Below are positions 4,367 to 44,959 of a stretch of 52,755 bases of DNA, one piece after another. The notes below the pieces were generated by a model, which was not told the DNA's origin, did not search any database, and worked only from the letters and a program-made list of their open reading frames with translations. Both the position numbers and the translations under genes were made by a program. Source of the DNA: an uncultured Victivallales bacterium (lineage in GTDB: Bacteria > Verrucomicrobiota > Kiritimatiellia > UBA8416); assembly GCA_964652765.1 (NCBI GenBank), contig CAZZBA010000001.1:1-52755 (forward strand), read 5' to 3'. The first letter of the stretch is position 1. Each line of letters starts with the position of its first letter.

Positions 4367-4383
4367 AAGAATGCCACGCTCTT

Positions 4384-8889: not shown

Positions 8890-8911
8890 CACGGGAGAGC
8901 GCAGGCATATT

Positions 8912-13711: not shown

Positions 13712-14557
13712 ATGGGACAACTTTTTAAATCTGTTGGGTTTTCCTTTTTCAGCCTGTTGGGTGGGGACGGCGCGGTCGGTGGTGTGCCTGTCTTGGCCTT
13801 TCACTCTGTGGATGGCTCGGGGACTTATCTGAGCACGGCGCCTGACCATTTCCGGGCGGAAATGGAACGACTGGCTGAGCGTGGCCTGGCCGGTGTATCG
13901 GTATCGCACGCGGCGGCGCACCTGCGCGAAGGGGATACGTCTGGCAAGATGGTTGTACTCACATTCGACGATGGCCTGGAGAGTTTCGGCGAGCATGCGT
14001 GGCCGGTGCTGCGCGATCTGGGCTTCGGGGCCACGTTGTACGTGCCGGTGGACTGCGTGGGTCGTGACGCGCACTGGTTTCCTGAATACGGGCTGCCCGC
14101 TTTGCGTCTGCATGGCTGGGACGAGCTGCGCCGGCTGCGTGACGAGGGGCTCGACATCCAGAGTCATGGCTGCCGCCACCCCCGGCTCACACGCCTGGAC
14201 GACGCAGGTCTGCGCGACGAGGTTTTTCGTTCCCGTCAGGTGCTTGAGCGCGAGCTGGGGATTTCCGTGAAGCACTTCTGCTATCCGTTCGGCGATTATG
14301 ATGGCCGCGTGATGGAGCAGGTGCGTGCGTGCGGGTATCTGACCGCCGTGACAACCGACCCCGGGTATTGGCAGCCCGGGGCGGACCCTCTGGCCGTTCG
14401 ACGTCTATGCCTCGATTGGATTACGGTACAAGATTGCGCATTTGCGAAGCGGGTTATCGATGCCTGCCTGGATGGGAGCTTTCCCAGGTATGTCAAGGTG
14501 CGCGACCGCATGCGTGCCATGGTCGGCATGAAATGGGAGCCGCCTAGTGGAAAATGA
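13712..14557 (+). CDS. Polysaccharide deacetylase (NodB homology / CE4)
   Basis: Motif 1 'VLTFDDGLES', a His motif 'QSHGCRHPRL', and 'HFCYPFGDYD'. There is an N-terminal hydrophobic segment. Confidence 0.85.
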   Translation: MGQLFKSVGFSFFSLLGGDGAVGGVPVLAFHSVDGSGTYLSTAPDHFRAEMERLAERGLAGVSVSHAAAHLREGDTSGKMVVLTFDDGLESFGEHAWPVLRDLGFGATLYVPVDCVGRDAHWFPEYGLPALRLHGWDELRRLRDEGLDIQSHGCRHPRLTRLDDAGLRDEVFRSRQVLERELGISVKHFCYPFGDYDGRVMEQVRACGYLTAVTTDPGYWQPGADPLAVRRLCLDWITVQDCAFAKRVIDACLDGSFPRYVKVRDRMRAMVGMKWEPPSGK

Positions 14558-16139
14558 CCGGAAAGGGAAGGTCCGTGGTGTCGTTCGTGGTACGGCCGTG
14601 CTCATGCTGGCGCGTGTTGCCATGATGCTCATGGGAATGGTTCAGACGATTCTGATCGCCCGCTGGTTCGGGGCCTCGTTCATGGTTGACGTCTTTTTTG
14701 TCGCGATGGTGGTCCCTGTTTTATTTCTGGGGGTAATGGAAACCAACTTAAGCCTGGCGTTTACTCCGTTGTTCGTCGAACTGGAAGAGTCGGAGAAACC
14801 TGATGATGCGTGGGTATTGGCGGCCACGCTGATGAAACGGGGTGCGCTGCTGGTGGGAATCTATTCGGCGGTTTCTCTACTGTTTGCATCGCCACTGGCG
14901 TCTATGCTTGCACCTGGATTCACGCCGCAAGCGCATCTTGAGCTGATTCGCATGATTCGTATCCTGTCGCCGCTGGGTCTGCTCATGTTTATCAGTGCAA
15001 CCCTGGCGTCTCTTTGTTTTGTCAGCGGAGCCTTCGTCCTTCCAGGGTTGACGTATCTGGTGAACGCGGGTTGTCCCTTGCTGGCATTGTTATTGTGGCA
15101 CCGCACCCTCGGCGTCTATGCGTTGCCTGTCGGGCTGCTGACCGGTTCGGTTCTGGGTGTGCTGATGTTGTTGCCGCGCTTTGGCTGGCGTCATCCGGTG
15201 TTCCGCACACCGACCAACATGAAACATCCCGCTGTGCGTGTATTCGGCAAGTCGATGGCGTTGCGGACGGCGGCTTCTTCATTGATGCAAGTGAATGTAG
15301 TGGTGGACGGTGCGTTTGCCTCGACCTTGGCGCCCGGCCATGTGGCATATCTTGCCTATGCCAGCCGGATCCTGTTGGCGTTGCGGCGCTTGGTGATGTT
15401 TCCGATGGGCCGGAGTCTGATGCCTACGCTTTCGCGGGCTGTTGCCCGAGGCGATTACGGCACGATCCAGCGCATCATTACCGGGGCCACCCGCCTGCTG
15501 GGGTTGTGTATTATTCCGGTATTCGGCTTTGTAATCGCCTTCAGCGAAGACATCGTGCGGATCATATTTGCGTCGGGTGCGTTCTCCGATGACGCCGTGC
15601 ATTTTACGTCGATCGCCCTGACGTTCTATGCGCTGGGTGCCTTCTCGGCGGTCCTGAATCCGGTTCTGACGGCGACGCACTTTGCGTTTCGCGATTCGAT
15701 CTCGCCCCTCAAGATCTCGCTTTTTGGCGCGGTGCTGAATGTAGTCCTGAATGCCATCGGCATCCGGCTTTTATCCTCGGGTGGAATTGCTTTAGCCACC
15801 TCACTGGTGATGACGGTGACCAGCGTGATGTTGTGGCGCAGCGTCGGCAGGATGAGTGGAAATCCAGACCTGCGAGTCGTGGTGCTTTCAGTTGGCAGGG
15901 TGCTTTTCGGTACCTTGGTGATGGTGATCGTCTCACGCGGCGTGTATGGTCTGGTGCCGTTTCCAGGCGGAGTCCATCCTGTTCTCTCGCTGCTCACGGC
16001 TTTTGTGTCGGGCGGTGCGGTCTATGCGGTGCTTCAGGTGGCATTGGGCTGGAAAGAGTTGCGGCAATTGCGCGGCATATTAAAGGCAAGCGGTCGGAGG
16101 AAGGGCACCACGCCACCAGTGGAATCAGCCGAGAACTGA
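14547..16139 (+). CDS. MurJ/MviN-family (MOP superfamily) lipid-linked oligosaccharide flippase
   Basis: About 14 TM helices. The MurJ-like N-terminus reads 'GTAVLMLARVAMMLMGMVQTILIARWFGASFMVDVFFVAMVVP'. The GTG start overlaps the end of the deacetylase gene. Confidence 0.8.
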   Translation: MENDRKGKVRGVVRGTAVLMLARVAMMLMGMVQTILIARWFGASFMVDVFFVAMVVPVLFLGVMETNLSLAFTPLFVELEESEKPDDAWVLAATLMKRGALLVGIYSAVSLLFASPLASMLAPGFTPQAHLELIRMIRILSPLGLLMFISATLASLCFVSGAFVLPGLTYLVNAGCPLLALLLWHRTLGVYALPVGLLTGSVLGVLMLLPRFGWRHPVFRTPTNMKHPAVRVFGKSMALRTAASSLMQVNVVVDGAFASTLAPGHVAYLAYASRILLALRRLVMFPMGRSLMPTLSRAVARGDYGTIQRIITGATRLLGLCIIPVFGFVIAFSEDIVRIIFASGAFSDDAVHFTSIALTFYALGAFSAVLNPVLTATHFAFRDSISPLKISLFGAVLNVVLNAIGIRLLSSGGIALATSLVMTVTSVMLWRSVGRMSGNPDLRVVVLSVGRVLFGTLVMVIVSRGVYGLVPFPGGVHPVLSLLTAFVSGGAVYAVLQVALGWKELRQLRGILKASGRRKGTTPPVESAEN

Positions 16140-16182: not shown

Positions 16183-19100
16183 CTAAGAGGATATGTCGAT
16201 ATCGGAGTCGGCGCGGCCCAGCAGCCATCGCTGTCCGGGCTCGAAGGGGGATTCGACTCCCGGCAACGGCTGGACAACGATATGGGGACCGCCGCGCGTA
16301 TAGAGGAACCCGAGGGCGCGCAGCACACGCATGGCATCCCGCTGCTCCGGTGCAAGCAGAACCCCGACCATGCGGACGCCGTCGCTGCGGAAGTCGCGCA
16401 AGGCCCGAACCACCAAGGCGGCCAGGGAGGCTCTGTCGCCCTGCGGGACGAGGAAGTCGACAATCATGGCGCGCGGCGAGCCCTGCCAGGTGTAGTTGCG
16501 CGTCACCAGGTAGCCGGATAGCCGGTCAATCCTGCAGATGGCGTACACGCGGTAGCTGCGGTTCTGGGGCACCTCCGAGAAACGCCAGGAAAGATATTTT
16601 TCGTCACGCACAGTGGCCGCTTCGCAGTCGCCGCCTGCGGCCACGCGCTCCCAGAGATGGGTGAAACGAGGGTCGAAGACCTCGACGAGCGAGACGCGAT
16701 TGGCAGCTCGCACGGCGGCACGGACCAGCGCGTGATGAGCATGGCCCAAGCCGTTGCAGGCGTATCCGGCAAGACGGGCGAGTAATGAATCGTGTCCGCT
16801 TTCTGCCAGAAGGGAGGCCGGTGCGAGGAATGCCTTCATTTCGACGGACTGGTAAAGCTCGCGGATCGAGCCGGTGGCACGTCCGATGTCGAGCGCGGCG
16901 GGAGCGGGCACAGCCAGTCTTGGAACCGTGGTTCCGACGGCGATCTGCTCGAAGAGCATAGCCGAGGCCTTGCGATGCTCGGGGTGCACGGTCGTGTCGG
17001 TACCCCACACAATGGGAATCTCCTTGCCGTGGCAGTGCAGGCGCGCGCAGAGCCCGCCATCGAAACCGACGATCGTGCCGTTGTGTTCGAGGACGAAACG
17101 GGGTGCCCCACCCGCTGGCGTGAACGGGTTCGTTTCGTATTTCCATTCCCATACGGCGGCGGCGTTCGTGGCCATGTCGGCCCCCCAAACCTCTTTGAGC
17201 AGGTCGAGAACACCGGTCTTGTCGTCGGGATCGAAAGGCCGGGCGCGGTAGCCGACGATGCGTATGGCCCCGTGTGGACCGCTATCGGGTACGGGAGTGG
17301 TGCTGGCTTCGGCGCTGCCTGGTCTGGTTCCCGCAGCCTGTTGGCGTTGATCAAGCATCGTGGCCAGGGCTTCGATCGTAGGGTTATGGTACAGTTCGAC
17401 CAGGGAGAGGTTGGTTTCGGCGTTTCCGCGGAGCCTTTGCAGGATCTGGGCGATGAGCAGCGAGTGGCCACCGATCTCGAAAAAGTTGTCCCGTATGCCT
17501 AAGCGTTCAGCATGGAGGATGTCCTGCCAGATGGAAACCAGCATTTTCTCGGTGGCTGTCTGCGGGGGGATGTATGCGCGCGTGGCGGTCTGGAGCGTGT
17601 GGGGTTCAGGTAGCGCGTTGCGGTCGACTTTCCGGTTCGGGGTGAGCGGAAGTGCATCGAGAAGCACGAAGGCGGAGGGTACCATGTAGGCGGGTAGCGA
17701 CTCGCCGAGAGCGCGCCGCACGCGGGGTATCAGATCATCCTCGTGCCCGTCGCCCCCGGGGACGATATAGCCGGCCAGATAGGTGATACCGCCCTGATCC
17801 TTCCAGGTGCGTGCAGCCGCGTGGCGCACCCCCGCGCATCCGCCCAAGGAGGCCTCGACGTCGCCAAGTTCGATCCTGAAGCCCCGCACCTTGACCTGGT
17901 GGTCGGTGCGCCCGAGGAATTCGATAGTGCCGTCCGGCATGCGGCGGCACAGGTCGCCTGTGCGATAGAGCCGCGCACCCGGCTTGCCGGAGAAGTGGTC
18001 CTGGATGAACTTCGTGGCGGTCAGCTCGGGGCGGTCAAGGTAGCCACGAGCCAAACCGGTGCCGCCGATCAGCAGTTCGCCGGGTACGCCGAGGGGTGCG
18101 GGCTGGAGGTTCTCCTCGACGATGTGGAGCGTCGTGTTGGCGAGTGGCTGGCCGAGGGGTACGGTGGGCCTGTCTGCGTCATGCACGCGGCAGATCGAGG
18201 ACCAGATGGTGGTCTCCGTCGGTCCGTAGACATTCCAGAGGGTATCGGTTACCGCAAGCAGGCCTTTGGCCAGTTCCTGTGTGAGAGCCTCGCCGCCACA
18301 TAGGACACGCACTCGGGCCGAATTGTTCCATCCGGAGGCGAGAAGCAGGTTCCATGTGGCGGGTGTGGCCTGCATGAATGTGGCATGGCAGCTATCGAGC
18401 AACGCGGAAAGGATCTGCGGGTCACGCGCCTCGCGCGAGTTGGCGACAACCAGATGGGCACCAGCCATGAGCGGGAGAAAAATCTCCAGATTGGAAATAT
18501 CGAAGCTGAGGGTGGTGACGGCCACGAGCGTATCATCGGCGTGGAAACGGGTCTGTTCCTGGATGGAGAGCAGGAAATTCAGCAGGGCACGGTGGGTGAT
18601 GACGACGCCCTTCGGGTTTCCTGTGGAGCCGGAGGTGTAAATGACGTAGGCGACCGAGTCTGGGTTGTGCTCGCGTGCGCTGTGCGCAGGCGGGCGTGTT
18701 GCGGCAGCGGACGGCTCCTGATCCGTACAGACCATTTGCACGCCCAGTGCGGAAAATCGTTCACTGAGGTGGGTCTGCGTCAGAAGAATGGGTATCCGGG
18801 AGTCGCGCACCATGTAATCGAGGCGCTGCATCGGGAAGTCCGGATCGAGGGGGACATAGGCGGCCCCGCATTCGAGCACAGCGAGCATGGCCACCACCAT
18901 GTCTACGGAGCGGTCCATGCTGATGCCGACAAGCGTTCCCCCGGCCACTTGCACCTCGATGAGTCGCTCGGTCAGTCGCGAAACACGCTGCATCAGCTCC
19001 CGGTAGGATAGCCGGCTCTGCTCGCAGGAGACTGCGGTGGCCGAGGGAGTGAGGTCGGCGCGGCGGGCAATCAGATGATGAATTCCTCGGGAAAGATCGT

Positions 19101-22100
19101 AGTCCCGTACGGAATTGTTCCACCGGGATGAAAGGGTCTGCGCCTCTTCATCTGAAAGGAGCGGGATCTCACCGATGGGGGTGGTGAGATTTTGTGGCAG
19201 TTCCTGGAGAAGATGCAGCAAATGGCTCGCCATCTGTTCGATGCGCCAGGGATCGAATAGCTGCGTGCTGAACTCGATGAATCCGGAAATGACACCGTTC
19301 CTTTCGTTGAGATCAAGAGCGATATCGAATTGCGAGGCACCGAGAAGCACCCGCAGATCCTCGACGATGGGATCAAGATGCGCCGAGTCGTGGCCTTGTC
19401 TGCCGTGAGAAGGGACTTGAAGAACGAAGGCGGTCTGGAAGAAGGGGGTGCGGCTGGTGTCGCGCGCCGGGTTCAATTCCCTGACAAGCCAGTCGAAAGG
19501 CAGTCCCTGGCGGGCGTATGCCTCACGTGCGGTATCGGAAACTGCTCGCAGCAGGTCGCCGAACGGTTGCGCGGGGTCGCTGGTCACGCGCAGCGGCAGC
19601 ATGTTGAGCGTCGGGCCGACAACGTCTTCCCATTCGGGATCGTCGCGTCCGGCGACCGGGGTTCCTATGGCGAAGTCGTACTGACGTGCGTAGCGGGCGA
19701 GAAGCAGGTACCAGGCACCGAGCAGGAGCATGTGAAGGGTTATGCCATTCTCGCGCGCAAGGCCGTAAAGCCGACCGCTGGTCTCGGCAGAGATGGCTAT
19801 CGGGATCGCCCGCCCGAGGTGGTCGATGACTTCGGGTCGCAGGCGATCTGTCGGTAGTTCAAGCGAGGGCACGCCGGCCAGCTTTCCTCGCCAGTAATCC
19901 AATGTGCTGGAATTGCTTACTATGGAGGAGAGGCTTTTGCGTTCCTGACGGGCATAGGCTCCGAAAGAAGGTGCAGCGGGCAATTCGACGGAGTGCCCCC
20001 CGTCGCGCACAGCAGAAAGGATCAGCATGAACTCGTTGGCCAGGGTCCGGATGGAGACGCCGTCGGCTATGCTGTGGTGCATGCAGATGATCAGCAGTGG
20101 AACACGATTCTGCTGTCGAACCAGCGTGAAGCGAACGAGTGGCCCCTCGGCCATGCTGAACGAGTGCCTCGCTTCTTGCTGCTTCAGTTCATCAAGGCTT
20201 GCCTGCCTCTCGGAATCGTCATCCAGGTCGACAACACGAATGGCGGGTGGCAGGTCCCTGTGAACGACCTGCATGAGGGTGCCATCGTCCGCCTCGCGGA
20301 ACGTTGTACGCAGGGTGTCGTGGCGAGAGCAGATGGCCTCGATCACTGTTCGCAGATCCGCCTCGGAGGCCGGTGCGGGCAATTGAACGGCTGTAGGCAG
20401 GTTGAATTGAGGCGAGTTGGGCGTCCACTGGCTGAGAAACCAGAAGCGTGACTGGCTGATGGACGCTGGCCAGAGCTGTTCCTCGCCTGTCCCATTCGGT
20501 TTCTCCGGATCTTCTGGTGGAAGGGCGGGGGCGGTTTCCGCTTTTACACCTTCAAGTTGAATAGTGGCCAGTATGGCGGAGGCAAAAGTCCCGATGGCGG
20601 GGTGATCCATGGCGATTGTCGCGGGCAGCTTTCTGCCGACGAGCTTCGAGACGCCATTGCGGAACTCAACGGCCATGAGGGAGTCCATGCCGATGTTGAA
20701 GAATCCGGTATCGTCGTGGAGTTCGTCGGGTTCGCGCGCGAGAACGGTAGCTAGCCGTTGTCGTATGGCGTCCCGCATGATGCGCGCACGCTCGTTCGGT
20801 TGGGCCGCACGCAACTGAGTGACAAAAGCCGTTTCGGATGTGCTGGGCCCCTCTGCCACGACAAGTGCTCCGAGCTGGCTAAAGATGGGCCGGGGGCGTT
20901 GGACTTCGGCCAGCTCCCGTAATTTATTCCAGTCGGCGGCGACGATGGTGGTGCTCGTCTGTCCGGTAGCCGCCGCCGTTTCCATGGCGTCGAGGGCGAG
21001 TTCGGGGGATAATGGGCTGATACCGCGGCTGCGCATCCATTCCATGGCCTCGGCATTGGCTACACCCATGCCGACCTGGGCCCATGGACCATAACTGATG
21101 GCTGTGGCAGCCAGGCCGTCGCTCCGGCGCGCAGCGGCCATGGCGTCGAGATAGGCGTTGGCGGCAGCATAGGCCCCCTGCATCACACTACCCCAGACCG
21201 AGGCGATGGAAGCAGTGCTGACAAAGAAATCAGGTGTTATTGCGCGTTCACGTATGCCACGGTCAAGCAACCAGCTCCCGTACACCTTGGCGGCCAGCGT
21301 CTTCTCCAAGTCTTCCGGCGTGATCTTTTCCAAGTCTCCGAACGATTCGATACCGGCGGCATGGATGATCCCGCGCAGCGGTCGGTTGGCTGAGAACTGC
21401 TGTAGGAGCAAGCCAACCCCCTCTGCAGTTGCCACATCGGCATTGACGACGTCTAATTGGCACCCCGTAGCCCTGATCTTCTCAATTTCCCGGCGGGCCG
21501 ATTCGTCAGGCACATGTCGGCTTGTCAGAACGATGCGGCCGGCGCCGCGTTCGGCCAGGCGCTGTGCCGCTTTGAGGCCAATACCACCGAGACCGCCGGT
21601 GATGAGGTAGTCAGCATCGGCATGTACTTCAAGATGCACAGCAGACGGGGCCATAGGAGCGGGAACGAGACGGGCTGCGTAGAGTTGGTTGGCGCGCACG
21701 GCTACCAGATCTTCAGGGCCGGGGGTCGTCAGGATTGGTACAACAGCGTCTATGACCGCTTTATCTGGTGCTGCCGGCAGGTCTATAAGCCCGCCCCAGA
21801 AGTCAGGTCGTTCCATGCCGATACACTTGCCAAGGCCCCAGAGGGGGGCGTGATCCGGCAGAACGCGGTCGCCTGGCGCAACCTGTTGCGTGGCCTGCGT
21901 CATGATCCAGAGTCTACCACACCATTGTGATTGGCATAGGTGCTGCGTGAGTGTGAGCAAGTTGTGAATTCCGATTTGCTGGGCGTGTTTCAGATCTGCC
22001 AGGCTATCGGCGGCTTGCTCGGCAAGGCCGACGGAACGTACATGTGCGATATGGGTCCAGTCTGCCGATTGCAGTTGGATTGCGTCAGCGGATGAATTGA

Positions 22101-25100
22101 CAATATGGCAACGGTGTCCCAACGCTTCAAGGGTGGCACCCAGCCTCTGGGCCGGTTGCGAGCCGATCAGCAGCCAACGCTGATGATTGTCGGTTCCGGT
22201 CGTATCCATTCGGGGAGTAGCGATCGGGTTCCATTGGATGCGGTAGGAGCGTGAGGCCAATGGATGTATCGCAACCGCTTGACGGAGCGGCTCATCGACC
22301 CAGAAGCGTTTGCGCTGGAACGGGTAGAGCGGGAGATCGAGTGGCGTGCGCACTGCCCGCCATGGCGCATCGATCGCGTCAAACCGGACGGGTGCACCAG
22401 ACACAAAGAGTTGACCCGCGGCGGCTAGTACGGATTCCGTATCATCCTTCTGCTGCCGTAATGAACCGATCCACGAGGGTTCCTTCGGCGACTCGCCGTC
22501 GGCACCGTCGTATTGGCACCGTTGACCCATTGATGTCAGGACAGGGTGAGGGCCGATCTCGAGCAGAATGTCACAACCCAGTTTCCGCAAGGCCAGGATA
22601 CCTTGGGCAAAGCGGACCGGCTGGCGGATGTGCTTTGCCCAGTAAGCCGCGTCAAGCAGCTCATCCTCGCCTACAAGGGTACCCGACACGTTGCTGACAA
22701 GTCGCGTGCGGGCCGGGTTGAAGGTGAAGCTGGCGGCGTAGCGTTTGAAGGGTTCAACGATCGGATCCATGTGGGCGCTATGAAACGCGTGCGAGGTCTT
22801 GAGTTGTTTGCACTTGATCCCTTCAGCAACCAGCCTGGTGATCAGTGGGTCCATGGCTTCGGCCGAGCCACTCAACACGGTATGCGCGCCGTTATAGGCG
22901 CCGATACAGATAAGCGGGTCATCGGCAATCGCCCGTTCGACGGTCTCTGCGTCCGCCGATACCGCAACCATGCAGCCGCCCGCAGGTACCGACTGCATGT
23001 ATCGCGCCCGTTCGGTGATGAGTTTCATGCCGGTCTCGATATCGAACACGCCTGCGATGGTACCAGCCGCATATTCGCCGACGCTATGCCCCAGCACCGC
23101 ATCCGGGACTATACCCCACGCACGCCAGAGAGCGGCGAGCGCCATCTCCAGGGCATAGAGCGCCGGTTGCGTGTAGCCGGTTTGGTTGATCAGGTCGGGG
23201 TTGGTATCATCCGGCGGGGTTTCGATGCCCATGACTTGCAGCAACGGCAGGGGGCGATCCGCACCGCGCACGGAATCAAAAACGGCCGCGCACTGATTGA
23301 GCACGTTCCTGAAAACGGGTTCGGAGGCGTAGAGGTTACGTCCCATACCAACCCACTGTGATCCCTGGCCGGTGCAGAGAAAGGCGATGCGCGGTTTGCG
23401 TCCGTCGCGGACAACATTGCCGCTCACCATGCCGGCGGCTTCATCCGCTGCAGCGAGTGCGCCAAGTTGCCGGACGAGCGTATCGCGGTCGGCGAACTGC
23501 AAGGCTGCGCGTGCCTCCAGGTGGGTGCGTCCGGTATTGGCGGTTAAGCACAAGTCCGGCAGCGCTGCTTCGGGATGGGTGTTTACCCACTCCGCATAGC
23601 TTCTGGCCAGGGCACAAAGGGCGGGATTGGAGCGTGCAGACAGAACAAGAAGCTGCTGGACCCGTTCGGGCGGGGGGTGGCTTTGATCCCCGGCGGAGAG
23701 AGGGCTAACGGGTGCGCTTTCAAGGATCAGGTGGCAATTCGTGCCGGTGAATCCAAATGCGCTGATCGCGCCGAGGCGCCGGCCCTTGGCTGGCCATGGT
23801 ACCGGTTCTGATACAACCTTCACGTTCAGGGTGTCCCATGGAATATGGGGATTGGGATTCCTGAAGTGGAGCGAGCGAGGGATTGTTTCGTGCTGAAGGC
23901 TTAGTACAAGCTTGATGATCCCAGTGGCCCCCGCCGCAGTTTCCAGATGGCCGACGTTGGTCTTGACACTCCCGAGAAGGAGCGGCTTGTCGGCAGGGCG
24001 CTCACGGGCGTACGCGGCGTTGGCAGCCTGGACCTCAATCGGGTCGCCCAGCGAGGTGCCGGTGCCGTGGCATTCCAAGTACTGCACGTCTGCGGGGACA
24101 ACGCCTGCATTCTGCAAGGCGGCGCGAATGACTTGCTCCTGGGCAATCCCGCTCGGTACGGTCAGGCCGCTGCTGTCGCCGTCCTGGTTTGCGGACGATC
24201 CACGAATCACGGCCAGCACGCGATTGCCATCGCGCCGGGCATCGCTCAATCGCTTAAGCACAAGCAGGGAGCAACCTTCGCTGCGCACGAAACCGTTGCC
24301 GGAAGCATCAAAGGTCTTGCAGCGACCATCAGGACTGAGCATATGCGCCCGGGACAGAGCGATGGTTACATTCGGGCTGAGCAAAGTGTTCACGCCACCA
24401 GCGATCGCGTGATCGCATTCGCCGCGTCGCAGGCAGGCACATGCCTCGTGGATGGCAACGAGGGACGAGCTGCAGGCGGTATCGATAGCCAGCGCCGGGC
24501 CGTGCCAGCCGAGCCGGAACGCGACCCTTCCCGCTGCAGCGGCAAGGGCATTTCCCGTTCCGACGTACGCATCGAGCTGTTCGCGGCCCTGTGCGGCAAT
24601 CCGTATCGAGTAATCGGTCACACCGATGCCGATATAGACCGCACCGCTTGTTCCGCGCAGCGAATCGGGCGGGATATTGGCATTTTCGAGAGCGTGCCAA
24701 GTGGTTTCAAGCACCATGCGTTGCTGTGGATCCAGACTTTTGGCTTCGCGCGGCGAGATGCCGAAGAAGTCGGCGTCGAACAGGTCGATGTCCTTGACGA
24801 AACCGCCGTGTCGCGCATAGGTTTTCCCAGGCTGGTCGGGATCGGGATCGTACAATTCGTCAAGACTCCAACGGTCTGGGGGAACCTCGGTGATCATATC
24901 GAGCCCCTGATCCAGGATATGCCAGAATTCCTCTGGATTTCCGGCACCGGGGATGCGACAGCCGACACCGACGATGGCGATGGGTTCGGTGGTGCGCTCG
25001 AGTTCGGTACGGAGCCGGTTTAGCGCATGCAGGGCCGCACGCATGCGGGCGCTGTCCATGGCCGTCGCTTCGGCACCGGCTGTGCCGAAAGCGGTATCAA

Positions 25101-28100
25101 AAGTGGTTGTAAGCACATCGGCGTCTAGTCCGTCTATGTCGGTTGATGTCGCCGTTTGGGCGGGTAGGGCCGCTTCAATCGCCCCAGTTCCGTCTGCGAA
25201 CAGATTGTTGAGCAGATAGTTTCCAAGGCGCAGCACGGTGGGGTGGTTGAAGATGTCAACGGGCTGAATGGCGAATGACGAACCGAGTTGCTTCTGTATG
25301 CGGTTGTTCAACTCGACGGCCATGATCGAGTTCATGCCACAGTCGAAGAAGCCCATGTCGGGGTTGATTCTCGCGGGGGGCAAACCGAGAATCTTGCCGA
25401 CTTCCTCCAGAAGGGTGTCTTGGAGGGCCTGGGATCGGTTGACCGCATCCAGGTTGCGGAGCCGGACGACGAGCGGGCCATCACCAGCGGGGACCGCCAC
25501 TTCCTTGCCCGCCGCAGTTCCCGGGGAGAGCCGACTTGTGATCTCCTCCATAAACGCGTCCAATACAGGGGGCAGCATACCCGCCGTAGCCAATTCGCTC
25601 CAGCGCCGGGCATTCAGGAGTTGTACACAGCACTGGGTGGCGGAACCCATGGCGAGTCTTCCAAAGGCGTCCAACGCCAGCGCGGGAGACATCAGGCGAG
25701 AGCCCATCGCTTCCCATTCGGCGTTCTCCATTTGAATCGCCATGCCGTGGGAAGCCCAGGGGCCCCAGTTGATCGCCACAGCTGGCCATCCAGCCCGGTG
25801 CCGATAATGGGCCAATCCGTCTAGAAAGGCGTTGGCCGCACTGTAGTTGGCGTGCCCGCGGATCCCGAGCAGTGAGGCCGCCGAACTGAAAAGAACAAAG
25901 AAGTCCAAATCCAGACTTCGGACTTGGACGGCGCGGTGCAGTGCCCAGGCTCCGCCAGCTTTCCCTGCCATAACCTTGCGTAACAGGGCGACATCCATCG
26001 AGGTCGTGGGTTCACCTGCGAGCACACCGGCAGCATGCACGATACCGCGCAACGGAGTGTCCGGCACGAGGCGCTTAATGGCATCGAGAAGCATGTCCAT
26101 CTCGTCGGCCTGCGCGGCGTCCGCCTTGAGCACCGTGAGTCGGCAGCCCAGCGCGTCAAGTTCCGCCGCCAGTCCCTCCGGGGTCGCGGACTCGCCGCGC
26201 CGGCTGGCCAGCACCAGATGGCGGGCTCCATGTGCCGCGAGATGACGGGCAATATCCACTCCGAGCGCGCCCGTGCCGCCGGTGATAAGGTAAACAGCTT
26301 TTTCAGCCAGCTGAAATCCGGCGGCTGGCGGCACCTCGGATGGGCGCAGGCGCGGAGTAAGATACGTGCCACTGCGCAGCGCAAACTGCAGTCCCGTTCG
26401 GGCACCGCACAGCAGGCGCTGCAACGCGCCGGCGCAGGGTTGGATATCCGCGTCCGCAGGCAGGTCGATGATGCCGCCGAAACGATCGGGATGCTCAATG
26501 CCGAACGTGCGGGCGTATCCCCAGAGGGCGGCTTGGCCCGGATCGGCGGTTTCGTTCGTCGTCACGGCTTGTGCAGCATGCGTGAGAATCCAGACTCGGC
26601 CTTCGCTGCCGCGTTGGATGAGCGCTTGCGAAGCAAGGAGTGCCGTCTCTACGCCGAGAGTTTGGATACGTTGCAGTTCGGCGGCATCTGCAGTGGGCGC
26701 GAGCGGCGGCGTCCATGCGAGTATGACGTCGGTGATTTCCGGGCGGTCCGCTGCCTCGGCGATAGCTGTTTTCAGCGTGGCGGGTTCCAAATCAGCGAGC
26801 GTATCGACGCTAAGACAGGAGACGGTATGACCGGCGGTGTGCAGCGAATCGACAAGGGCGAGTGAACGCTTGTCGGTGAGCAGCAACCATTCCCCGGATG
26901 CGTTGCGATGGCGATCCGCCGCGTCATCGGCGAGCCAGGCAACTTCGAAGAATTGTTCGGAGTCCGAAACGCCGGGGGCCTTGCGGAATCCAGGACAATA
27001 GCGGACGTGCTGGAAGGGATACGTCGGCAACACCAGCGGTGCGTGTTGCGCGGACCAAGGGGCCTCCATGGCGGCCAGGTCAAGATCAACACCGAGTGTG
27101 TGGAGCTTTGCCGCGGTGCGCAGCATCTGGGCGTGCGCGTTACGCCCCGCTTCGAGCGATTGTGTCCATAGGACCTCGTGCAGGGGGCGCCAGCACATTT
27201 GTGCTAGCCACATCAGCTCTGCCTTCGGACCGATCTCGATAATCGTATCGCAGTGCGCATGTTCAAAGAGGGTCTTGACCCCTTGGGCAAAGCGAACGGG
27301 TTGACGCGCGTGATCGCGCCAGTGTCGGGCGTCGAGCATCGTGCCTTCGGGCACGGAGTCGCCCGAAAGGGTGCTGATCATGCCCTCCCGCACGGGCTGG
27401 TAGGCGAGGGTGTCGGCGAATTGCTGGAAGTCCTCGGCGATAGGATCGACCGTGGCGCTATGAAAGGCCCTGGTCGCAGGCAGACGCATGCAGTACAGAC
27501 CCTGCGCCGTGAACTTCTCAAGCAGCGCGTCGAGCCGTTCCGACGGGCCGCTGATTACGGTGTTCAGTCCGTTATAGGCCGAGATGCAGACATCGGGCAC
27601 ATCCGCCAGGGACGCTTCGACATCCGCAGCGGGCGCGGTGACCGAGGCCATCGCGCCGCCGCCGGGCATGGTTTCCATGAGTTGCGCCCTGCGCAGCACC
27701 AGCTTCATGCCTTCAGCGGCGCTGAAGGCACCCACGGTGAACGCGGCGGCGTATTCTCCCAGGCTGTGTCCCACAACCGCGACCGGTTCGATGCCCCAAG
27801 CCTGCCACTGGGCAGTAAGGGCGACTTGCAGCGCGTAGATGGCGGGCTGGGCGTACAGTGTTTGCTTCAACCGCGCGGCGTGGGCATCATCGAAGATCAA
27901 CGCCTGCAGGGACGGGCCGCCCTGTTCTTCCTGCAATTCGGCATAGGCGGTAGCGCAAGCGTCGATACTGGCGCGGAAAACCGGTTCGTTATCGTATAAT
28001 TCGCGGCCCATGCCTCCGTATTGTGCACCCTGTCCTGTGAACAGGAACCCGACGCGCCGCGGCGTGGCGGCGATCTGTCCCCGTTCAACACTCGCGATGA

Positions 28101-31100
28101 TGTCCCCGGCGGCGATCGATTCAAGCTGCTGTGCAAGCTCACGGGCTGAGCCGGCGACGAGGGTGGCGCGTTCCTCGAACTGGTTGCGACCGGTATTGTG
28201 ACAGTAGCAGATCCGGGCGAGATCGACGTCGCTGTGGTCGGCCATCCATGCCGCGTAACCGGAGGCTAACTGCCGCAGGGCATCTTCGCTGCGGGCGGAG
28301 AGGGCCAATAGGCGATATTCCGGACTCTTGCCGCGGGGCTCGCTGGTCTGCTCCTGTTGCGCCGGTGCCGGCGGTTCCTGGAGGATGGCATGCGTGTTTG
28401 TGCCCACAAAGCCGAACGCGCTGACGGCACCCAGTCGCGGTTTGCCCTCGGCGGGCGCCGGCCATTCGGTCAGTGACTTGGCTACTTTGACGGCATGTTT
28501 GTTCCACCGGATATGCGGGTTCAATTCCTCGGCATGCAGGCTAGGTGGTACCATGCGATGCTGTAGTGCCAGTACGACCTTGAGTAGTCCAGCCATGCCG
28601 GCGGCGGCCTCGAGGTGACCAAGATTGCTCTTGGCGGAACCGATCAGTAGAGGTTGGGTCTGCGCGCGCCCCTGAGCATAAACGGCATCGGCGGCCTGTA
28701 CTTCGATCGGATCGCCCAATGGTGTGCCTGTGCCGTGGCATTCAAGGTACTGTACGTCGGTGGGTGCCACCTCGGCCGCTTGGAGCGCGGCGGCGATCAC
28801 CGCGGATTGCGACGGTCCGCTCGGGGCGGTCAGGCCGCTTGTGCGTCCGTCTTGATTCACGGCGCTACCGCGCAGGATGGATAGCACACGGTTGCCGTCC
28901 CGCAAGGCGTCGCTGAGTCTCTTGAGCACCACGATGCCGCACCCTTCGCCACGGCCATACCCGTCGCCGCCGACGGAGAACGTTTTGCAGCGGCCATCGG
29001 GGCTGAGCATACCTGCCCGGCAGAAAGCGACGGTCACATCGGGACTGAGCACAAGATTCACTCCGCCTGCAATGGCTTCGGTACATTCCCCCAGGCGCAG
29101 TGCCTGCATAGCATGGTGCACGGCGACAATCGAGGAACTGCAGGCGGTGTCCAGCACGACACTGGGACCCACCAGCCCGAGCGCATAGGAAAGCCGACCG
29201 GCGACGGCGCATTGGGCCGTGCCTGTGGGCAGCATGGACTCGTCGCGTCCGTTTGGTTGCGAAAGTAATAATTGGCGATAATCCGCAGTGGAGACGCCCA
29301 TGAAGACGCCGACCCGCTTTCCGGCCAGTGATGCGGGCGCAATGCCTGCATGTTCCAGGGCTGTCCAGGCGACCTCGAGCGTTATGCGCTGTTGCGGGTC
29401 CATGGACAGGACTTCGCGCGGCGACAGATCGAAGAAGGGGGCATCGAAATCGAGGGCACCGTCAATAAAGCCGCCGCTACGGGTGTACATGCGGCCCGCA
29501 GCATGGCGATCTTCGTCATAATAGGCGGCGATGTCCCAGCGGTCTTCAGGAATGGGACCGATGGCGTCGCGTCCCTCGCGCAACAAGCTCCAGTAGGCAT
29601 CGATATCGGGTGCGCCGGGAAAGCGACAGGCCATGCCAACGATGGCGATAGGTTCGTTGAGATGGTCTTTTGACACGTTTGCGGAAAGTCTAACGTCTTG
29701 TTGTTGTGCCCCAGCGTAGCGTTGCTCGATGTAGGTGGCAATGGCGTCGATATTAGGTTGGTCGAAGAGTAGGGTGGCAGGCAGCTCGAAATCGTCACCC
29801 AGCCACATCTGGAGCTTCTTCGCCAGTTCGACGGCGAGCATGGAGTCCACGCCGATTCGTTCGAAACCCAGATTAGCGGGCGGTGGGGTTTCGAATCCCA
29901 AGGCGACGGTCAGTTCGTGTTGCAGATGCGCGATAATGCGGCGCTTGAGTTCCGCCGGGGAGCAGCCGCGCAGGGTTTCATTGAAACGCCCGCGTGTTTC
30001 GGGCACGCCAACCGTGGCACCCTTGGGAACCGGCGGCATCCATTCGGCCAGAGGGGCAAATTCCTTCCGGGCGAACATGTGGGCACAGGCCGACCGACGG
30101 ATTTTCCCGCTGGACGTCTTGGGCGTGTGGTAGGGTTGCAGAAGGGCGATCCAGCAGGGGGTTACCTCGAACCGGTCGACGACAGCGGCGCGCATCGCGG
30201 CCAGTATCGACTCCCTTTCGACCGTTCGGCGTTCCGAACGCTTGATTTCCGCCACAACGGCCAAGCCTTCCTGACCATTCAGCTCGACGCTGAAGGCGGC
30301 ACAACTGTCGGACTCGATGGCAGGGTGGCAAGTCTCGACCACGCGCTCCACATCTTGCGGGTAGATATTACGTCCGCGGATGATGATCAGATCCTTTAAT
30401 CGCCCCGTCACAAAGAGTTCCTTGCGGTATAGAAATCCGATGTCGCCAGTGCGCAGGAATGGGCCTTCCTGTGTGTCGGCGATCCGTGCCTGAAAAGTCC
30501 GCTCGGTCTCCTCCGGCTGCTCCCAGTATCCCTGGGTAACCCCGGGGCCAGCTATCCAGATTTCACCGACTTCCAGTTCATGGCAGAGCGTGCATGAGTC
30601 CGGGGCAACGATGCGGACATCGAAACCACCGCCGATACGCCCGGAGCTCGGGCGTAGCGGGTTCGCAGGATCGGGTTTCTCCAGCAGCAGAACATTGTTT
30701 TGTTCCAATTCTTCCGTGACCACAGGTACCAGGAACGGATCCTCTTCCTGCGGTGTGGCCGATAACAAGAGTGTGGTCTCGGCCATCCCGTAGCATGGGA
30801 GATGCGCTTGATGACGGAATCCATAGGGGGCAAAGGTTTCGGTAAAGGCGGTCAGTGTATCGGCCCGGATCGGTTCGGCCCCGTTCCAGAGTCGCAGCAA
30901 GGCGCTCAGATCCAATCCTTCCCGCTCTTCCGGCGAGGTGTCCTTGACACAGAGTTCCAGTCCGAAGTTCGGGGTGGGGGCGGAGGTCGCCCGGTACTTG
31001 CTCATGGCCCGTAGCCAGCGAATCGGTTTCTGCAGGAATGCGGCGGGAGACATCAGATAACAGGGAAAGTTCGCATAGATCGGCCAAACAAGACTACCCA

Positions 31101-31779
31101 GCAGACCCATATCGTGAAAAAACGGCTGCCAAGAGACATGGATCAACGCATCGCCTTCAATGCCCGTGTTATCGATATACCAGGCGTTATGCAGTATGTT
31201 TCCGTGACTGACCATGACCCCGCGCGGCGCACCCGTAGACCCGGAGGTGTACTGCAAGACGGCCAGATCTTCCCGTTTCCACGACGGCTTAACCCAGAGT
31301 TCCGAGAGGTTGGGTAATGTGTCCGTCGCCAGGACATCGATATCGTTTCCCAGATACTCGACCAGCGCGTCTCGATATTCCTGAACGCAAAAGACGGCTT
31401 TTGGACGCGCGTCAGATGTGATCAGCTTCAAACGTTCGTCCTGCCGCCGCTTGCGCGGCGGGTACATGGGTACAGCCACGGCCCCGGCATAGAGGCAGCC
31501 TATGAAGCCGCGAATGAAATCGAGGCCCGGTGGATAGGAAAGGAGCACCCGTTCGCCGGCCATGCCTCGCTGCTGCAACCAGGCGGCAATTGAGCGGGCC
31601 TGGCGATCAAGCTGTGCGCAGGAAAGGCTGTCTCCCTCTTGTTCACCGTCCACGAGGAACGTGAAAAGGCGATTGTCAGGTGTTTGTCGTGCGTGCCACA
31701 GCAATTGCTCCGTAACGGAGTTCCCTGTAACTTGCGCCCAACGGCTCGCCGCGGTTCTCTCCTCGAAGGATAGGCTCAT
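16183..31779 (-). CDS. Hybrid fatty-acyl-AMP-ligase / type I PKS (2 modules) / NRPS (1 module) megasynthase with a C-terminal GNAT-like domain; 5,198 aa
   Basis: A single uninterrupted ORF. All core motifs were mapped by hand (see the domain features): FAAL-ACP-KS-AT-KR-ACP-KS-AT-KR-ACP-C-A-PCP-GNAT-like. I found no DH, ER, TE or R motifs. Confidence 0.95.
16186..17268 (-). other. Megasynthase domain: C-terminal tandem GNAT-fold-like (FemAB/CelD/N-acyl-synthase-like) acyltransferase domain, aa ~4838-5198
   Basis: It follows a Pro/Ser/Thr linker after the PCP. '[10 protein letters not shown]...[16 protein letters not shown]...[23 protein letters not shown]' resembles GNAT motif A. A second half reads '[33 protein letters not shown]...[38 protein letters not shown]...LRALGF'. 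There is no GxSxG (TE) and no Rossmann/YxxxK (R) motif. Confidence 0.5.
17350..17568 (-). other. Megasynthase domain: PCP (Ser4772)
   Basis: '[20 protein letters not shown]'. Confidence 0.85.
17605..19077 (-). other. Megasynthase domain: NRPS adenylation (A) domain, probably glycine-activating, aa ~4235-4725
   Basis: 'LSYRELMQR', '[15 protein letters not shown]', 'FDISNLEIF', 'NVYGPTETT', '[15 protein letters not shown]', 'YRTGDL', '[20 protein letters not shown]', and 'PNRKVDR'. The hand-aligned specificity positions 235/236/239/278/299/301 read D-I-L-Q-L-G. Confidence 0.8.
19165..20478 (-). other. Megasynthase domain: NRPS condensation (C) domain, aa ~3768-4205
   Basis: '[10 protein letters not shown]' and active-site '[10 protein letters not shown]' (HHxxxDG). 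Confidence 0.85.
20560..20817 (-). other. Megasynthase domain: ACP3 (Ser3700)
   Basis: '[19 protein letters not shown]'. Confidence 0.85.
20920..22182 (-). other. Megasynthase domain: KR2, aa ~3200-3620
   Basis: '[18 protein letters not shown]', '[10 protein letters not shown]' (no LDD), 'KVYGSWLL', and 'YAAANAYLD'. Confidence 0.8.
22525..23388 (-). other. Megasynthase domain: AT2 (malonyl-type), aa ~2798-3085
   Basis: '[14 protein letters not shown]', '[10 protein letters not shown]', and 'SHAFHS'. Confidence 0.8.
23716..24987 (-). other. Megasynthase domain: KS2, aa ~2265-2688
   Basis: '[14 protein letters not shown]', '[12 protein letters not shown]', '[14 protein letters not shown]', and '[15 protein letters not shown]'. 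Confidence 0.9.
25210..25458 (-). other. Megasynthase domain: ACP2 (Ser2151)
   Basis: '[19 protein letters not shown]'. Confidence 0.85.
25600..26898 (-). other. Megasynthase domain: KR1 (structural plus catalytic subdomains), aa ~1628-2060
   Basis: '[18 protein letters not shown]', '[10 protein letters not shown]' (no LDD), 'KAGGAWALH', and catalytic 'YSAANAFLD'. Confidence 0.8.
27145..28053 (-). other. Megasynthase domain: AT1 (malonyl-type), aa ~1243-1545
   Basis: '[14 protein letters not shown]', '[10 protein letters not shown]', and 'RAFHS'. The xAFH pattern, rather than YASH, argues for malonyl-CoA. Confidence 0.8.
28375..29655 (-). other. Megasynthase domain: KS1, aa ~709-1135
   Basis: '[14 protein letters not shown]', active-site '[12 protein letters not shown]', '[14 protein letters not shown]', and '[15 protein letters not shown]'. 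Confidence 0.9.
29716..29958 (-). other. Megasynthase domain: ACP1 (Ser646)
   Basis: '[20 protein letters not shown]'. Confidence 0.85.
30055..31707 (-). other. Megasynthase domain: FAAL (fatty acyl-AMP ligase) loading domain, aa ~25-575
   Basis: '[24 protein letters not shown]', 'YGMAETT', 'LRTGDIGF', '[20 protein letters not shown]', and 'KTSSGKIRR'. It is fused directly to an ACP, as in FadD32/Ols-type loaders. Confidence 0.85.
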
Positions 31780-31899
31780 TGGAATTCTCTACACCAATCA
31801 ATTCTTGTGTGTGATTAACTTTAGGTGTTACTTTGCTGGAAATAGGGTGTGGTGTCAACCCGGAACTGCCGGAAACAGCCCCCCCGCAGGAGTCGCATT

Positions 31900-32703
31900 A
31901 TGAGAACAGCGATCGGTACACAGGAAAACGTGCCGTCAGGTTTGGCTGGGCGGTTTCCCGGCAGCAACACGGGGGTGAATCTTCTGTGGTCTTCCGTCAA
32001 CGCCTACAGGCCATTGATGCCTAATGAAATCGATGTCTGGCGTGTGGATCTGGATATTTCGGATGCCCGGCGTGAACGTCTATTGTCCATTCTCTCGCCG
32101 GATGAAGCGGCCCGCGCCGCCCTTTACCGGTTTCCCGAGCTTGGACGGCGCTACATCGCCGGTCGTGGTGCGTTGCGCTGTATCCTGGGGCGCTGCCTGG
32201 GCATTGATCCGAAACGGGTCCGGTTTGATTATGAGGCAAATGGCAAGCCCATTTTGGCGAGCCCGCCAGCACCCTCCGGTGCGTTGTCCTTTAACATCAC
32301 CCATTCGCATGAATTGGCGCTGTGCGTCGTTACTCGGGAGCGTCGCATCGGCGTGGATGTTGAACACATGCTTCGAACGGTGGATATGGAGTCCATTGCG
32401 CAACGTTATTTTTCTCCTCATGAATATGCCGCGCTGCAGTCCGCGCCGCTGGTGCAGCGTCGCGCGCTGTTCTTTCGGTACTGGACCTGCAAGGAAGCCT
32501 GCATCAAGGCAACGGGCAAGGGATTATCCCAATTGGAAGACGTTGAGGTGGTGTTGAGTGGCGCCAGGCCTGGCCGATGGAAGTCATCAGGGCGGTGGCG
32601 GCTCTATGAGTTGTCCCCCAAGATGGATTTTGCGGCGGCCGTGGCGGCTGAGGGTTGTGATCATGTGCTGCGCGGTTGGCATTATGCCCACGTGCCGGAA
32701 TAA
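31900..32703 (+). CDS. Sfp-type 4'-phosphopantetheinyl transferase
   Basis: ATG 31900 lies 7 nt after AGGAG. Motifs: 'YEANGKPIL', 'FNITHSHELALCVV', 'IGVDVE', and 'FFRYWTCKEACIKATGKG' (W/FxxKEAxxK). It is divergent from the megasynthase. Confidence 0.85.
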   Translation: MRTAIGTQENVPSGLAGRFPGSNTGVNLLWSSVNAYRPLMPNEIDVWRVDLDISDARRERLLSILSPDEAARAALYRFPELGRRYIAGRGALRCILGRCLGIDPKRVRFDYEANGKPILASPPAPSGALSFNITHSHELALCVVTRERRIGVDVEHMLRTVDMESIAQRYFSPHEYAALQSAPLVQRRALFFRYWTCKEACIKATGKGLSQLEDVEVVLSGARPGRWKSSGRWRLYELSPKMDFAAAVAAEGCDHVLRGWHYAHVPE

Positions 32704-32894
32704 CCCGAAGCGGTCGCACATGCGCTGCACCAAGCGGCGACGATGGCGCTTCATGCCTCTGCTCACAGGCGGCGGATGAAAAATGTATCGACTGGACGGC
32801 TTGCAGTTTGTCATAGTTCCAGCATGGAACCTTGCATGCGGCATGGGGCCCGTCGCAAGGCGCGTGGGCTGGTGAGATCAATGAGGGGGAGGGT

Positions 32895-34034: not shown

Positions 34035-34098
34035 ATTCCCATCCGCATTGGTGCCGCTGTGGCGCGGGCGGGGCCGCCGGTGGAGTATTTTTTGGTTT

Positions 34099-34920
34099 AT
34101 GAAGAATTATAAAGGAACACCCGATGAACTGGTCGCCAGCTTGTGGTGCCACCGGAATTTGATTCTTGCGTTGACGCGCCGGGACATTGCCGGGCGCTAC
34201 CGCGGGTCCTTGCTGGGCATCCTATGGTCATTTGTGAACCCGCTCCTGATGCTCGGTGTATACACGTTCGCCTTCGGTGTGATTTTCGGGGCGCGCTGGA
34301 CCGCAGGTTCGGATTCGAAGATGGAGTTCGCCATTATCCTCTTTGCCGGTATGCTTGTTTTTCAACTGTTTTCCGAGTGCGTGAATCGTGCGCCATCGCT
34401 GGTCCTCTCCAATCCGAGCTATGTCAAGAAAGTGGTTTTCCCCCTTGAAGTCCTGCCGATCGTGTCGCTGGGCTCGAGCCTGTTCCACATGCTGGTGAGT
34501 CTCTCGGTCTGGCTGCTGTTCTACTTCGTCGGATTTGGATTGCCCTCCCCGGCAATCCTGTTGCTGCCCGTTATGCTGCTGCCCCTGGTACTGTTTACAA
34601 TAGGCTTATCCTGGATGCTGGCCTCTTTCGGGGTTTACTTACGCGATGTGGGGCATATGGTTTCTTCGTTGACGCTGATGTTGTTGTTCCTTTCGGCCGT
34701 ATTCTATCCGATAGAATCCGTACCGGAAGCCCTGCGTACGCCTTTGACGGTGGCTAATCCACTGGTGTTCCATGTCGAAATATGCCGGCAAGTGATGGTT
34801 TGGGGTAAACTCCCGGCATGGGACTCATGGACGATCTACTTCGTTTTGAGTTTGGTGGTCGCTTGTCTGGGATTTGCCTGGTTCCAGAAGACGCGGAGGG
34901 GGTTCGCCGATGTCCTCTGA
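34099..34920 (+). CDS. wzm: ABC-2 type polysaccharide/O-antigen export permease
   Basis: ATG 34099 (MKNYKG...). 'RRDIAGRYRGSLLGILWSFVNPLLML' is the ABC-2 signature N-terminus, and there are 6 TM helices. Confidence 0.85.
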   Translation: MKNYKGTPDELVASLWCHRNLILALTRRDIAGRYRGSLLGILWSFVNPLLMLGVYTFAFGVIFGARWTAGSDSKMEFAIILFAGMLVFQLFSECVNRAPSLVLSNPSYVKKVVFPLEVLPIVSLGSSLFHMLVSLSVWLLFYFVGFGLPSPAILLLPVMLLPLVLFTIGLSWMLASFGVYLRDVGHMVSSLTLMLLFLSAVFYPIESVPEALRTPLTVANPLVFHVEICRQVMVWGKLPAWDSWTIYFVLSLVVACLGFAWFQKTRRGFADVL

Positions 34921-42711: not shown

Positions 42712-42724
42712 CGGTGGGAGTTGT

Positions 42725-44938: not shown

Positions 44939-44959
44939 AGAATTATGGGGGGTATTTGA

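Follow-up and report, generated by a model that had tools for sequence, protein, structure and literature searches.

We describe the C-terminal end of a megasynthase gene on a contig of an uncultured Victivallales bacterium (Verrucomicrobiota; NCBI GenBank assembly GCA_964652765.1, contig CAZZBA010000001.1). The whole stretch of DNA that was analyzed, positions 1 to 52,755 of this contig, is referred to as the window. The megasynthase is embedded in polysaccharide machinery, as seen in Pfam and NCBIfam scans of the window. Over the whole protein, Pfam gives the order FAAL-ACP-KS-AT-KR-ACP-KS-AT-KR-ACP-C-A-PCP, i.e. a fatty acyl-AMP ligase (FAAL), acyl carrier proteins (ACP), two polyketide synthase (PKS) modules with ketosynthase, acyltransferase and ketoreductase domains, and a nonribosomal peptide synthetase (NRPS) module with condensation (C), adenylation (A) and peptidyl carrier protein (PCP) domains. 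These are followed by a predicted tandem GCN5-related N-acetyltransferase (GNAT) domain, the last 361 codons of the gene (exactly 16186-17268), which is referred to as the tail and is the subject of this work. The features of the gene that matter here are the following.

16183..31779, minus strand: megasynthase gene, 5198 amino acids (aa) (open reading frame (ORF) list and Pfam)
17629..19068, minus strand: adenylation domain, aa ~4238-4717 (Pfam AMP-binding and AMP-binding_C)
17344..17562, minus strand: terminal PCP, approximate limits (translation and Pfam)
17269..17343, minus strand: flexible Ala/Pro/Ser/Thr-rich linker between PCP and tail, roughly 25-30 aa (translation)
16828..17268, minus strand: GNAT half 1, tail aa 1-147, presumed donor (phosphopantetheine-thioester) side (Acetyltransf_9, AlphaFold2 and a profile match to N-myristoyltransferase (NMT))
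16957..16974, minus strand: degenerate GNAT motif A, R99-K-A-S-A-M (comparison with standalone relatives)
16699..16827, minus strand: helical connector, tail aa 148-190, the least conserved segment (AlphaFold2 and conservation per segment)
16270..16698, minus strand: GNAT half 2, tail aa 191-333, presumed acceptor side (AlphaFold2, conservation and weak PDB matches)
16186..16269, minus strand: C-terminal segment with conserved W348 and the acidic motif D354-S-D-I-D358 at 16195-16209 (near-invariant columns and alignment of fused members)

The phosphopantetheine serine of the terminal PCP is S4773 (codon 17461-17463), located in a GGHSL motif at aa 4770. Acetyltransf_9 is the only Pfam match C-terminal of this PCP, and no thioesterase (TE), reductase or terminal condensation domain was matched by Pfam in the megasynthase after it. 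Regular expressions for GxSxG, HHxxxD(G), YxxxK, GxGxxG, GxxGxxG and SxxK found none of these motifs in the 361-aa tail. Both searches agree with the first-pass annotation of this DNA, made from the letters alone, which had seen no TE, reductase or condensation motifs in the last ~360 aa. Likewise, no TE, reductase, terminal C domain or free hydrolase was identified in the megasynthase or in the assignable ORFs of the window, and no TE or hydrolase in two related loci (L001 and L003, described below). The specificity code of the adenylation domain was read by eye as D-I-L-Q-L-G-V-I-W-K. Because it differs at a single residue from DILQLGLIWK, which we take to be the glycine code, glycine is a reasonable assignment for the last unit of the chain, so that the chain is called acyl-glycyl here, as the annotation had already proposed.

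The match of Acetyltransf_9 to the tail lies just over the threshold (26.6 bits, cut-off 25, E 6.4e-6) and covers tail aa 9-103. A structure model built with AlphaFold2 from the single sequence was unusable (pLDDT 36.9). The final model was therefore built on an alignment of 70 sequences and reached a pLDDT of 94.2 and a pTM of 0.92. It displays two β-α GNAT units, at aa ~1-147 and ~191-333, with helices between them and a 28-residue segment after the second. When this model was searched against the PDB with Foldseek, 273 matches were obtained at E ≤ 1e-3; the 50 that were listed all have a GNAT fold. The best matches are NMT, Eis2, the tandem GNAT of the clavulanate pathway (2wpx/2wpw), 2ozg and 2i00, with E-values of about 1e-13, TM-scores of 0.5-0.6 (0.54-0.59 for the leading ones) and identities of 9-15%. 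At the sequence level the PDB yields less: the tail alone gives matches at E~0.7 only, and the profile gives weak ones, namely to the acyl-CoA-binding N-terminal half of NMT (E 0.0016) and to small GNATs over tail aa 229-325. On the model and these matches, the tandem-GNAT fold of the tail is a solid prediction, and the two GNAT-like halves that had been suspected from the letters are recovered by Acetyltransf_9, by the Pfam matches of the family, by the model and by Foldseek. Every string quoted at the time is indeed present in the tail (YLSWRF at position 225, YRVYAI at 239, GYLVTR at 252, IVDFLV at 269, LRALGF at 316, and the longer ones at 63, 94 and 285). Pfam, Foldseek and the missing motifs rule out an α/β-hydrolase, short-chain dehydrogenase/reductase (SDR) or condensation fold. 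The annotation had named these folds as the ones that would speak against a GNAT, and none of them appeared in the HMM, AlphaFold2 or Foldseek results.

Most of the near-invariant residues of the family are located in GNAT half 2, including the motif VRDxxYLxWRF at 16579-16611. Of the 18 near-invariant residues, only D203 is changed in the tail (to T); because the other 17 are retained, the tail is likely still functional. The acidic motif D354-D358 lies close to the C-terminus, at a distance of 3-8 residues. An alignment of seven fused members, whose identity to the tail is no more than 29-38%, has 46 invariant columns, which points to selection on a functional site.

Relatives of the tail were collected with an exhaustive HMMER search of 1.84 billion representative proteins, which returned 3218 relatives at E ≤ 1e-3, of which 24 reach E ≤ 1e-30. 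The majority are standalone proteins of 340-390 aa (~355) that align end to end over tail aa ~7-359. Among 70 aligned family members, Acetyltransf_9 matches 58 and Acetyltransf_1 matches 50. Neither the tail nor any of ten standalone relatives is matched by an NCBIfam model above threshold. The families that the first-pass annotation had put forward (LuxI, FeeM/OlsB-type and FemAB) have to be set aside, as none gives a match above threshold; the true relatives are unnamed standalone tandem GNATs. Other routes found little: a word-indexed protein search gave no matches with the tail and only three proteins with the profile, and a profile-based locus search gave no confirmed relatives in genomes and only four distant ones in metagenomes. 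The nearest relative of the tail in a genome is encoded by a metagenome-assembled genome (MAG) of the Krumholzibacteriia (39% identity). The family also extends to haloarchaea (L067, Salinibaculum salinum; L121, Natronorubrum sulfidifaciens). To our knowledge, haloarchaea generally lack ACP-based lipid synthesis, and their family members presumably use acyl-CoA.

The domain is also found at the C-terminus of other megasynthases, directly after the last ACP or PCP. None of the fused members found stems from a cultured strain; examples are listed below.

Full-length fused members: P0001 (4085 aa), P0012 (4122 aa), P0014 (2960 aa) and P0023 (4572 aa)
Fused fragments truncated by the contig end: P0002, P0003, P0004, P0008 and P0010
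Fused members in genome MAGs: L012, L058 and L093 (the last in a Burkholderiales MAG)

FAAL is the first domain of the line in the window, of P0001 and P0012, and of the genes upstream of P0014 and P0002; this statement covers the lines that are seen from their first domain, the loading end of P0023 not being visible. In a neighbor-joining tree, all 10 fused representatives fall inside one clade of twelve. Because they form a single clade, the fusion appears to have arisen once and to have then persisted in ACP-ending and PCP-ending lines alike. In the locus L126 (10001-12664, GCA_036681025.1), A-PCP-tandem-GNAT is called as a gene of its own, of 887 aa, which shares 44 bp with the end of a PKS gene of 4364 aa; this is either a real split or an assembly frameshift.

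The fused clade differs from the standalone members in motif A. This motif (Q/R-x-x-G-x-G/A) is the loop with which GNATs bind the pyrophosphate of coenzyme A (CoA). The loop after strand β4 of half 1 reads R-G-x-G in standalone members, whereas R-K-A-S, R-A-A-T, K-M-A-M and similar sequences are found in the fused clade. The glycine at position 4 is kept in only 1 of 10 fused representatives versus 86 of 130 standalone ones, and the full pattern is matched in neither half 1 nor half 2 of the tail. Such a loss fits a phosphopantetheine thioester on a carrier domain as the donor, rather than acyl-CoA.

An association with carrier proteins is also observed outside the fused clade. A DNA-pattern scan for VRDxx[YF]LxWRF in 185,579 species genomes yielded 120 slices of eight kb, ~115 of which hold family members. 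An AMP-ligase is adjacent in 27 of these ~115 slices, and a small carrier-protein ORF is present in at least 19. The family thus accompanies adenylation-plus-carrier pairs even when it is not fused to them. An example is the standalone cassette of Lysobacter and Luteimonas (L077 770-5596; L029 846-7843), which is composed of an AMP-ligase, an ACP of 82-85 aa, a NadE-like ATP-pyrophosphatase, a HemK-like methyltransferase (MT) and the tandem GNAT. The best NCBIfam match of its ligase is the exosortase-A-associated acyl-CoA ligase, under the cut-off. This cassette belongs to an uncharacterized pathway; an AsnB-like amidotransferase is encoded nearby and sugar genes are absent.

In the window, the genes upstream of the megasynthase encode an initiating sugar transferase, glycosyltransferases (GT) of families GT2 and GT4, a sulfotransferase, Wza, a Wzc-like protein, Wzy_C, a deacetylase and a MurJ-like flippase. 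Those downstream encode a phosphopantetheinyl transferase (PPTase), an acyl-CoA/ACP dehydrogenase (ACAD), Wzm/Wzt, a methyltransferase-sulfotransferase fusion, large glycosyltransferases and an Acyl_transf_3 enzyme. The nearest of these genes are the following.

13712..14557, plus strand: polysaccharide deacetylase with NodB-homology domain (Polysacc_deac_1 1.6e-24; TFDDG and HxxxH present)
14547..16139, plus strand: MurJ/MOP-family flippase, convergent on the 3' end of the megasynthase gene (family scans; arrangement repeated in L003 and L127)
31849..32703, plus strand: Sfp-type PPTase, divergent from the megasynthase gene (Pfam; conserved in L003)
32832..34034, plus strand: ACAD-family enzyme (family scans; conserved in L003)
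34027..36265, plus strand: exporter pair of Wzm (ABC-2 permease) and Wzt (ATPase with Wzt_C glycan-binding domain) (conserved in L003)

The deacetylase has weak NCBIfam matches to PgaB, IcaB and NodB (for NodB, 24.7 bits versus a cut-off of 240). A deacetylase is also encoded beside two fused relatives with readable flanks (L001 and L003), and genes of polysaccharide type (MurJ-like flippase, sulfotransferase, Wza or sugar transferase) flank six fused relatives. The P0012 locus (L003) is syntenic with the window and contains the deacetylase, MurJ-like, megasynthase, PPTase, ACAD, Wzm, Wzt and MT-GT genes. The P0001 locus (L001) contains four sulfotransferase-like genes, Wzy_C, Wza, a deacetylase, Bac_transf and an AsnB-like gene, and a sulfotransferase is present in L012 and L058. 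A MurJ-like gene converges on the 3' end of the megasynthase gene in the window, in L003 (22358-23941, where the two genes overlap by 12 bp) and in L127 (2344-3066). Across the family, a deacetylase is found in 18 of the ~115 family-bearing slices. In six Actinobacteria MAGs (L008, L031, L040, L050, L108 and L117), the deacetylase gene runs up to, or into, the beginning of the tandem-GNAT gene, with GT4 genes in the flanks; this is a compact deacetylase-plus-acyltransferase pair. The link to the neighboring deacetylase, which the first-pass annotation had drawn from this one locus, hereby gains comparative support, and by analogy the logic of NodB and NodA would be the simplest reading of the pairing.

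Some further observations were made on the other genes of the window. The dehydrogenase at 32832-34034 has sub-threshold NCBIfam matches to dehydrogenases that act on carrier proteins, including prolyl-PCP dehydrogenase and MbtN, and may desaturate a carrier-bound intermediate. Directly after Wzt, a 598-aa fusion of Methyltransf_24 and Sulfotransfer_2 is encoded (36216-38012, plus strand); that it is a WbdD-like, chain-terminating capping enzyme would be speculation by analogy. The region 36000-50000 has a GC content of 0.42-0.50, versus 0.55-0.64 in the remaining window, and encodes this fusion, a 1228-aa multi-GT protein, an epimerase, an MT-GT2 protein and the Acyl_transf_3 enzyme. The genes for an ABC-transporter-dependent glycan in this low-GC region resemble a block of distinct composition that was possibly acquired. 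ORFs without family assignment are located at 979-2619, 8792-11026, 42629-44938 and 49393-52050; the second of these, of 744 aa, has only faint matches to Wzc and chain-length determinants.

We propose that the tail is the release domain of this FAAL-PKS-PKS-NRPS line and would free the acyl-glycyl chain by aminolysis, as an amide. A probability of roughly 0.55 is assigned to this reading, in favor of which are the fold, the terminal position after a carrier, the recurrence of the fusion, the absence of any other release domain, the loss of the CoA-pyrophosphate glycine and the conserved neighborhood. The predicted chain on the phosphopantetheine of the PCP is a 3,5-dihydroxy-fatty-acyl-glycyl thioester. 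In the proposed mechanism, the PCP would deliver it into the cleft of GNAT half 1, while half 2 and the acidic C-terminal segment would hold a nucleophilic amine. This amine would attack the thioester, upon which the amide product would leave and the holo-PCP would be regenerated. The acceptor would most plausibly be an amino sugar on a glycan or glycan precursor, from which the adjacent deacetylase has removed the N-acetyl group, and the acylated glycan or precursor would then be handled by the neighboring flippase or exporters. Catalytic activity, aminolysis, the identity of the acceptor and the choice of N- over O-acylation are points that we infer.

Several observations weigh against this proposal. 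The loss of motif A is a single ancestral event and carries the weight of one observation, and it could equally mark a catalytically dead half. The degenerate motif, together with the change of D203 to T, would agree with an inactive tail that serves as a dimerization, docking or membrane-targeting module, or with a simple thioester hydrolase. With 17 of 18 near-invariant residues kept and 46 columns invariant among strongly diverged fused members, either function is very unlikely, and we know of no precedent for a GNAT-fold thioesterase. Standalone relatives, which keep R-G-x-G, may use acyl-CoA donors despite their ACP neighbors. As this CoA-type loop is kept in most GNATs as well as in most standalone family members, the tail might be a CoA-dependent N-acetyl- or acyltransferase for tailoring, for example of the glycan or the product, that was fused to the line only for co-localization, release being hydrolytic or performed by a trans-acting enzyme. 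Such a releasing enzyme might be hidden among the unassigned ORFs of the window (979-2619, 42629-44938, 49393-50127 and others). We consider a tailoring function unlikely, as the pyrophosphate-binding glycine is lost specifically in the fused clade, the domain always directly follows the last carrier, whether ACP or PCP, and no TE or hydrolase was found in the window, L001 or L003.

Within the aminolysis reading, a de-N-acetylated amino sugar is put forward as the acceptor only tentatively, by analogy with Nod-type acylation. Many family loci, the ligase-ACP-NadE-like-methyltransferase cassette of proteobacteria among them, contain no sugar genes, the flanks are long enough to assess the context in only three fused loci, and neighborhood enrichment was gauged against rough genome-wide expectations rather than a measured control. 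In addition, the N-terminus of the deacetylase (MGQLFKSVGFSFFSLLGG...) is ambiguous for a signal peptide, and a periplasmic deacetylase could not supply the cytoplasmic megasynthase. The same aminolysis could instead be directed at a polyamine, an amino acid, ethanolamine, the head group of phosphatidylethanolamine, or the N-terminus or a lysine of a protein, which would yield a lipo-amino-acid conjugate or a lipidated protein. The top fold and profile matches are NMTs, which acylate the N-terminal glycine of proteins, the conserved acidic DSDxD at the C-terminus would suit any cationic amine, the standalone cassettes of proteobacteria lack sugar genes, and many family loci have no deacetylase inside the 8-kb slice. 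A non-sugar acceptor is nevertheless rather unlikely in view of the deacetylase in two fused loci with readable flanks, the polysaccharide-type genes in six and the direct adjacency of the deacetylase in Actinobacteria; the NMT models of Pfam do not match the tail, and a TM-score of ~0.56 reflects shared architecture rather than close kinship. The most encompassing statement, namely that monophyletic FAAL-PKS(-NRPS) lines attach a lipid or lipo-glycine via a tandem GNAT in cis to an amino sugar that has lost its N-acetyl group, in a polysaccharide or a precursor of one, is at present doubtful.

Release by a terminal GNAT is not without precedent, and the remark in the first-pass annotation that no characterized cis-acting C-terminal GNAT off-loader was known needs qualifying: according to the review PMC10510592, Drosophila Ebony carries a C-terminal domain of arylalkylamine N-acetyltransferase (AANAT) type after A-PCP and makes β-alanyl-dopamine and β-alanyl-histamine. 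In Ebony, as in the megasynthase, a GNAT-fold domain stands last, directly after the PCP, and Ebony releases the PCP-bound acyl group as an amide with a free amine. Ebony is a eukaryotic, single-module enzyme with a single AANAT-like GNAT, whereas the tail is a tandem GNAT on a bacterial, multimodular FAAL-PKS-NRPS line; no sequence relationship between them was detected, the Ebony sequence not having been compared directly. Ebony is the closest functional precedent: off-loading by a GNAT is known, and here it would be performed by a tandem GNAT of bacterial PKS-NRPS lines that are associated with polysaccharide loci. PMC10510592, among others, cites Izore et al. 2019 on Ebony.

Like the tail, NMT, Eis and 2wpx are single chains of about 330-400 aa in which two GNAT folds form one cleft. 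The C-terminus of NMT and of Eis reaches the active site, and by analogy the idea arises that the acidic C-terminal motif of the tail might do the same. These enzymes use acyl-CoA, whereas the donor proposed for the tail is a carrier-protein thioester. Moreover, neither NMT nor NMT_C (Pfam) matches the tail at E ≤ 1, and Eis has an SCP2-like third domain, while the tail ends 28 residues after GNAT half 2 and has no SCP2/Acetyltransf_17 match.

The locus resembles the NodB/NodA system in that a NodB-homology deacetylase adjoins an acyltransferase supplied with acyl chains on carrier proteins. The locus also encodes sulfotransferases, methyltransferases, an ABC-2 exporter and an Acyl_transf_3 enzyme, whose counterparts in Nod clusters are NodH, NodS, NodIJ and NodX. 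It differs in that the chain comes from a 5198-aa assembly line and carries glycine, that NodA (Pfam) gives no match to the tail at E ≤ 1, and that it has the appearance of an exopolysaccharide or O-antigen-type cluster rather than one for chitooligosaccharides. Type I PKS genes have been described in capsular-polysaccharide clusters, namely WcbR and RkpA (PMC3908369). Like the megasynthase, these PKSs are encoded among genes for polysaccharide synthesis and export. They have long been suspected of making the lipid part for a glycan, and we know of no C-terminal tandem GNAT or NRPS module in them.

ACP-mediated mechanisms are recognized in the GNAT literature (PMC8072286), and FeeM-type N-acyl amino acid synthases have been linked to PEP-CTERM loci, as cited in a passage of PMC11631085. 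LuxI-type acyl-homoserine lactone synthases, FeeM-type synthases and MbtK use a GNAT fold to turn an ACP-thioester acyl group into an amide, as proposed for the tail. They are free-standing single GNATs, and none of their Pfam or NCBIfam models matches the tail or the ten standalone relatives. Acetyltransf_6, which would indicate FemAB/FemX, reaches only 12.9 bits versus a cut-off of 22 (E 0.12), and no FemAB (Pfam) or NCBIfam match was found. Three other candidates were dismissed. The terminal amidation domain is AAR-like and NAD-binding (bioRxiv 10.1101/2024.10.28.620694), and was rejected as an identity for the tail, which has a GNAT fold without Rossmann motif. The OlsH/OlsI ornithine-lipid pathway employs GH3-like and α/β-hydrolase enzymes and no GNAT, and the lipocone literature offered no relevant system. 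In the full-text literature, the coverage of which was incomplete, neither the standalone family nor a tandem GNAT as the terminal domain of a bacterial PKS or NRPS was found to be described.

A tandem GNAT that recurs at the end of bacterial lines in several phyla would extend the short list of release domains, which comprises the TE, the reductase, the terminal C domain and a few oddities. For genome mining, it would provide a new end-of-line marker for clusters that otherwise seem to lack a release step, and for engineering a possible handle for amide-linked conjugates. For the standalone family of ~3200 representatives, which is uncurated, the data provide a pointer to function, namely carrier-protein-fed N-acylation after de-N-acetylation. 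The neighborhood suggests a direct biosynthetic link from polyketide lipids to exported polysaccharides, which could also explain the puzzling PKS genes in capsule clusters. If true, these lines would make an undescribed class of polyketide-anchored, often sulfated surface glycans, in which the deacetylate-then-acylate logic of Nod factors operates at the scale of an assembly line.

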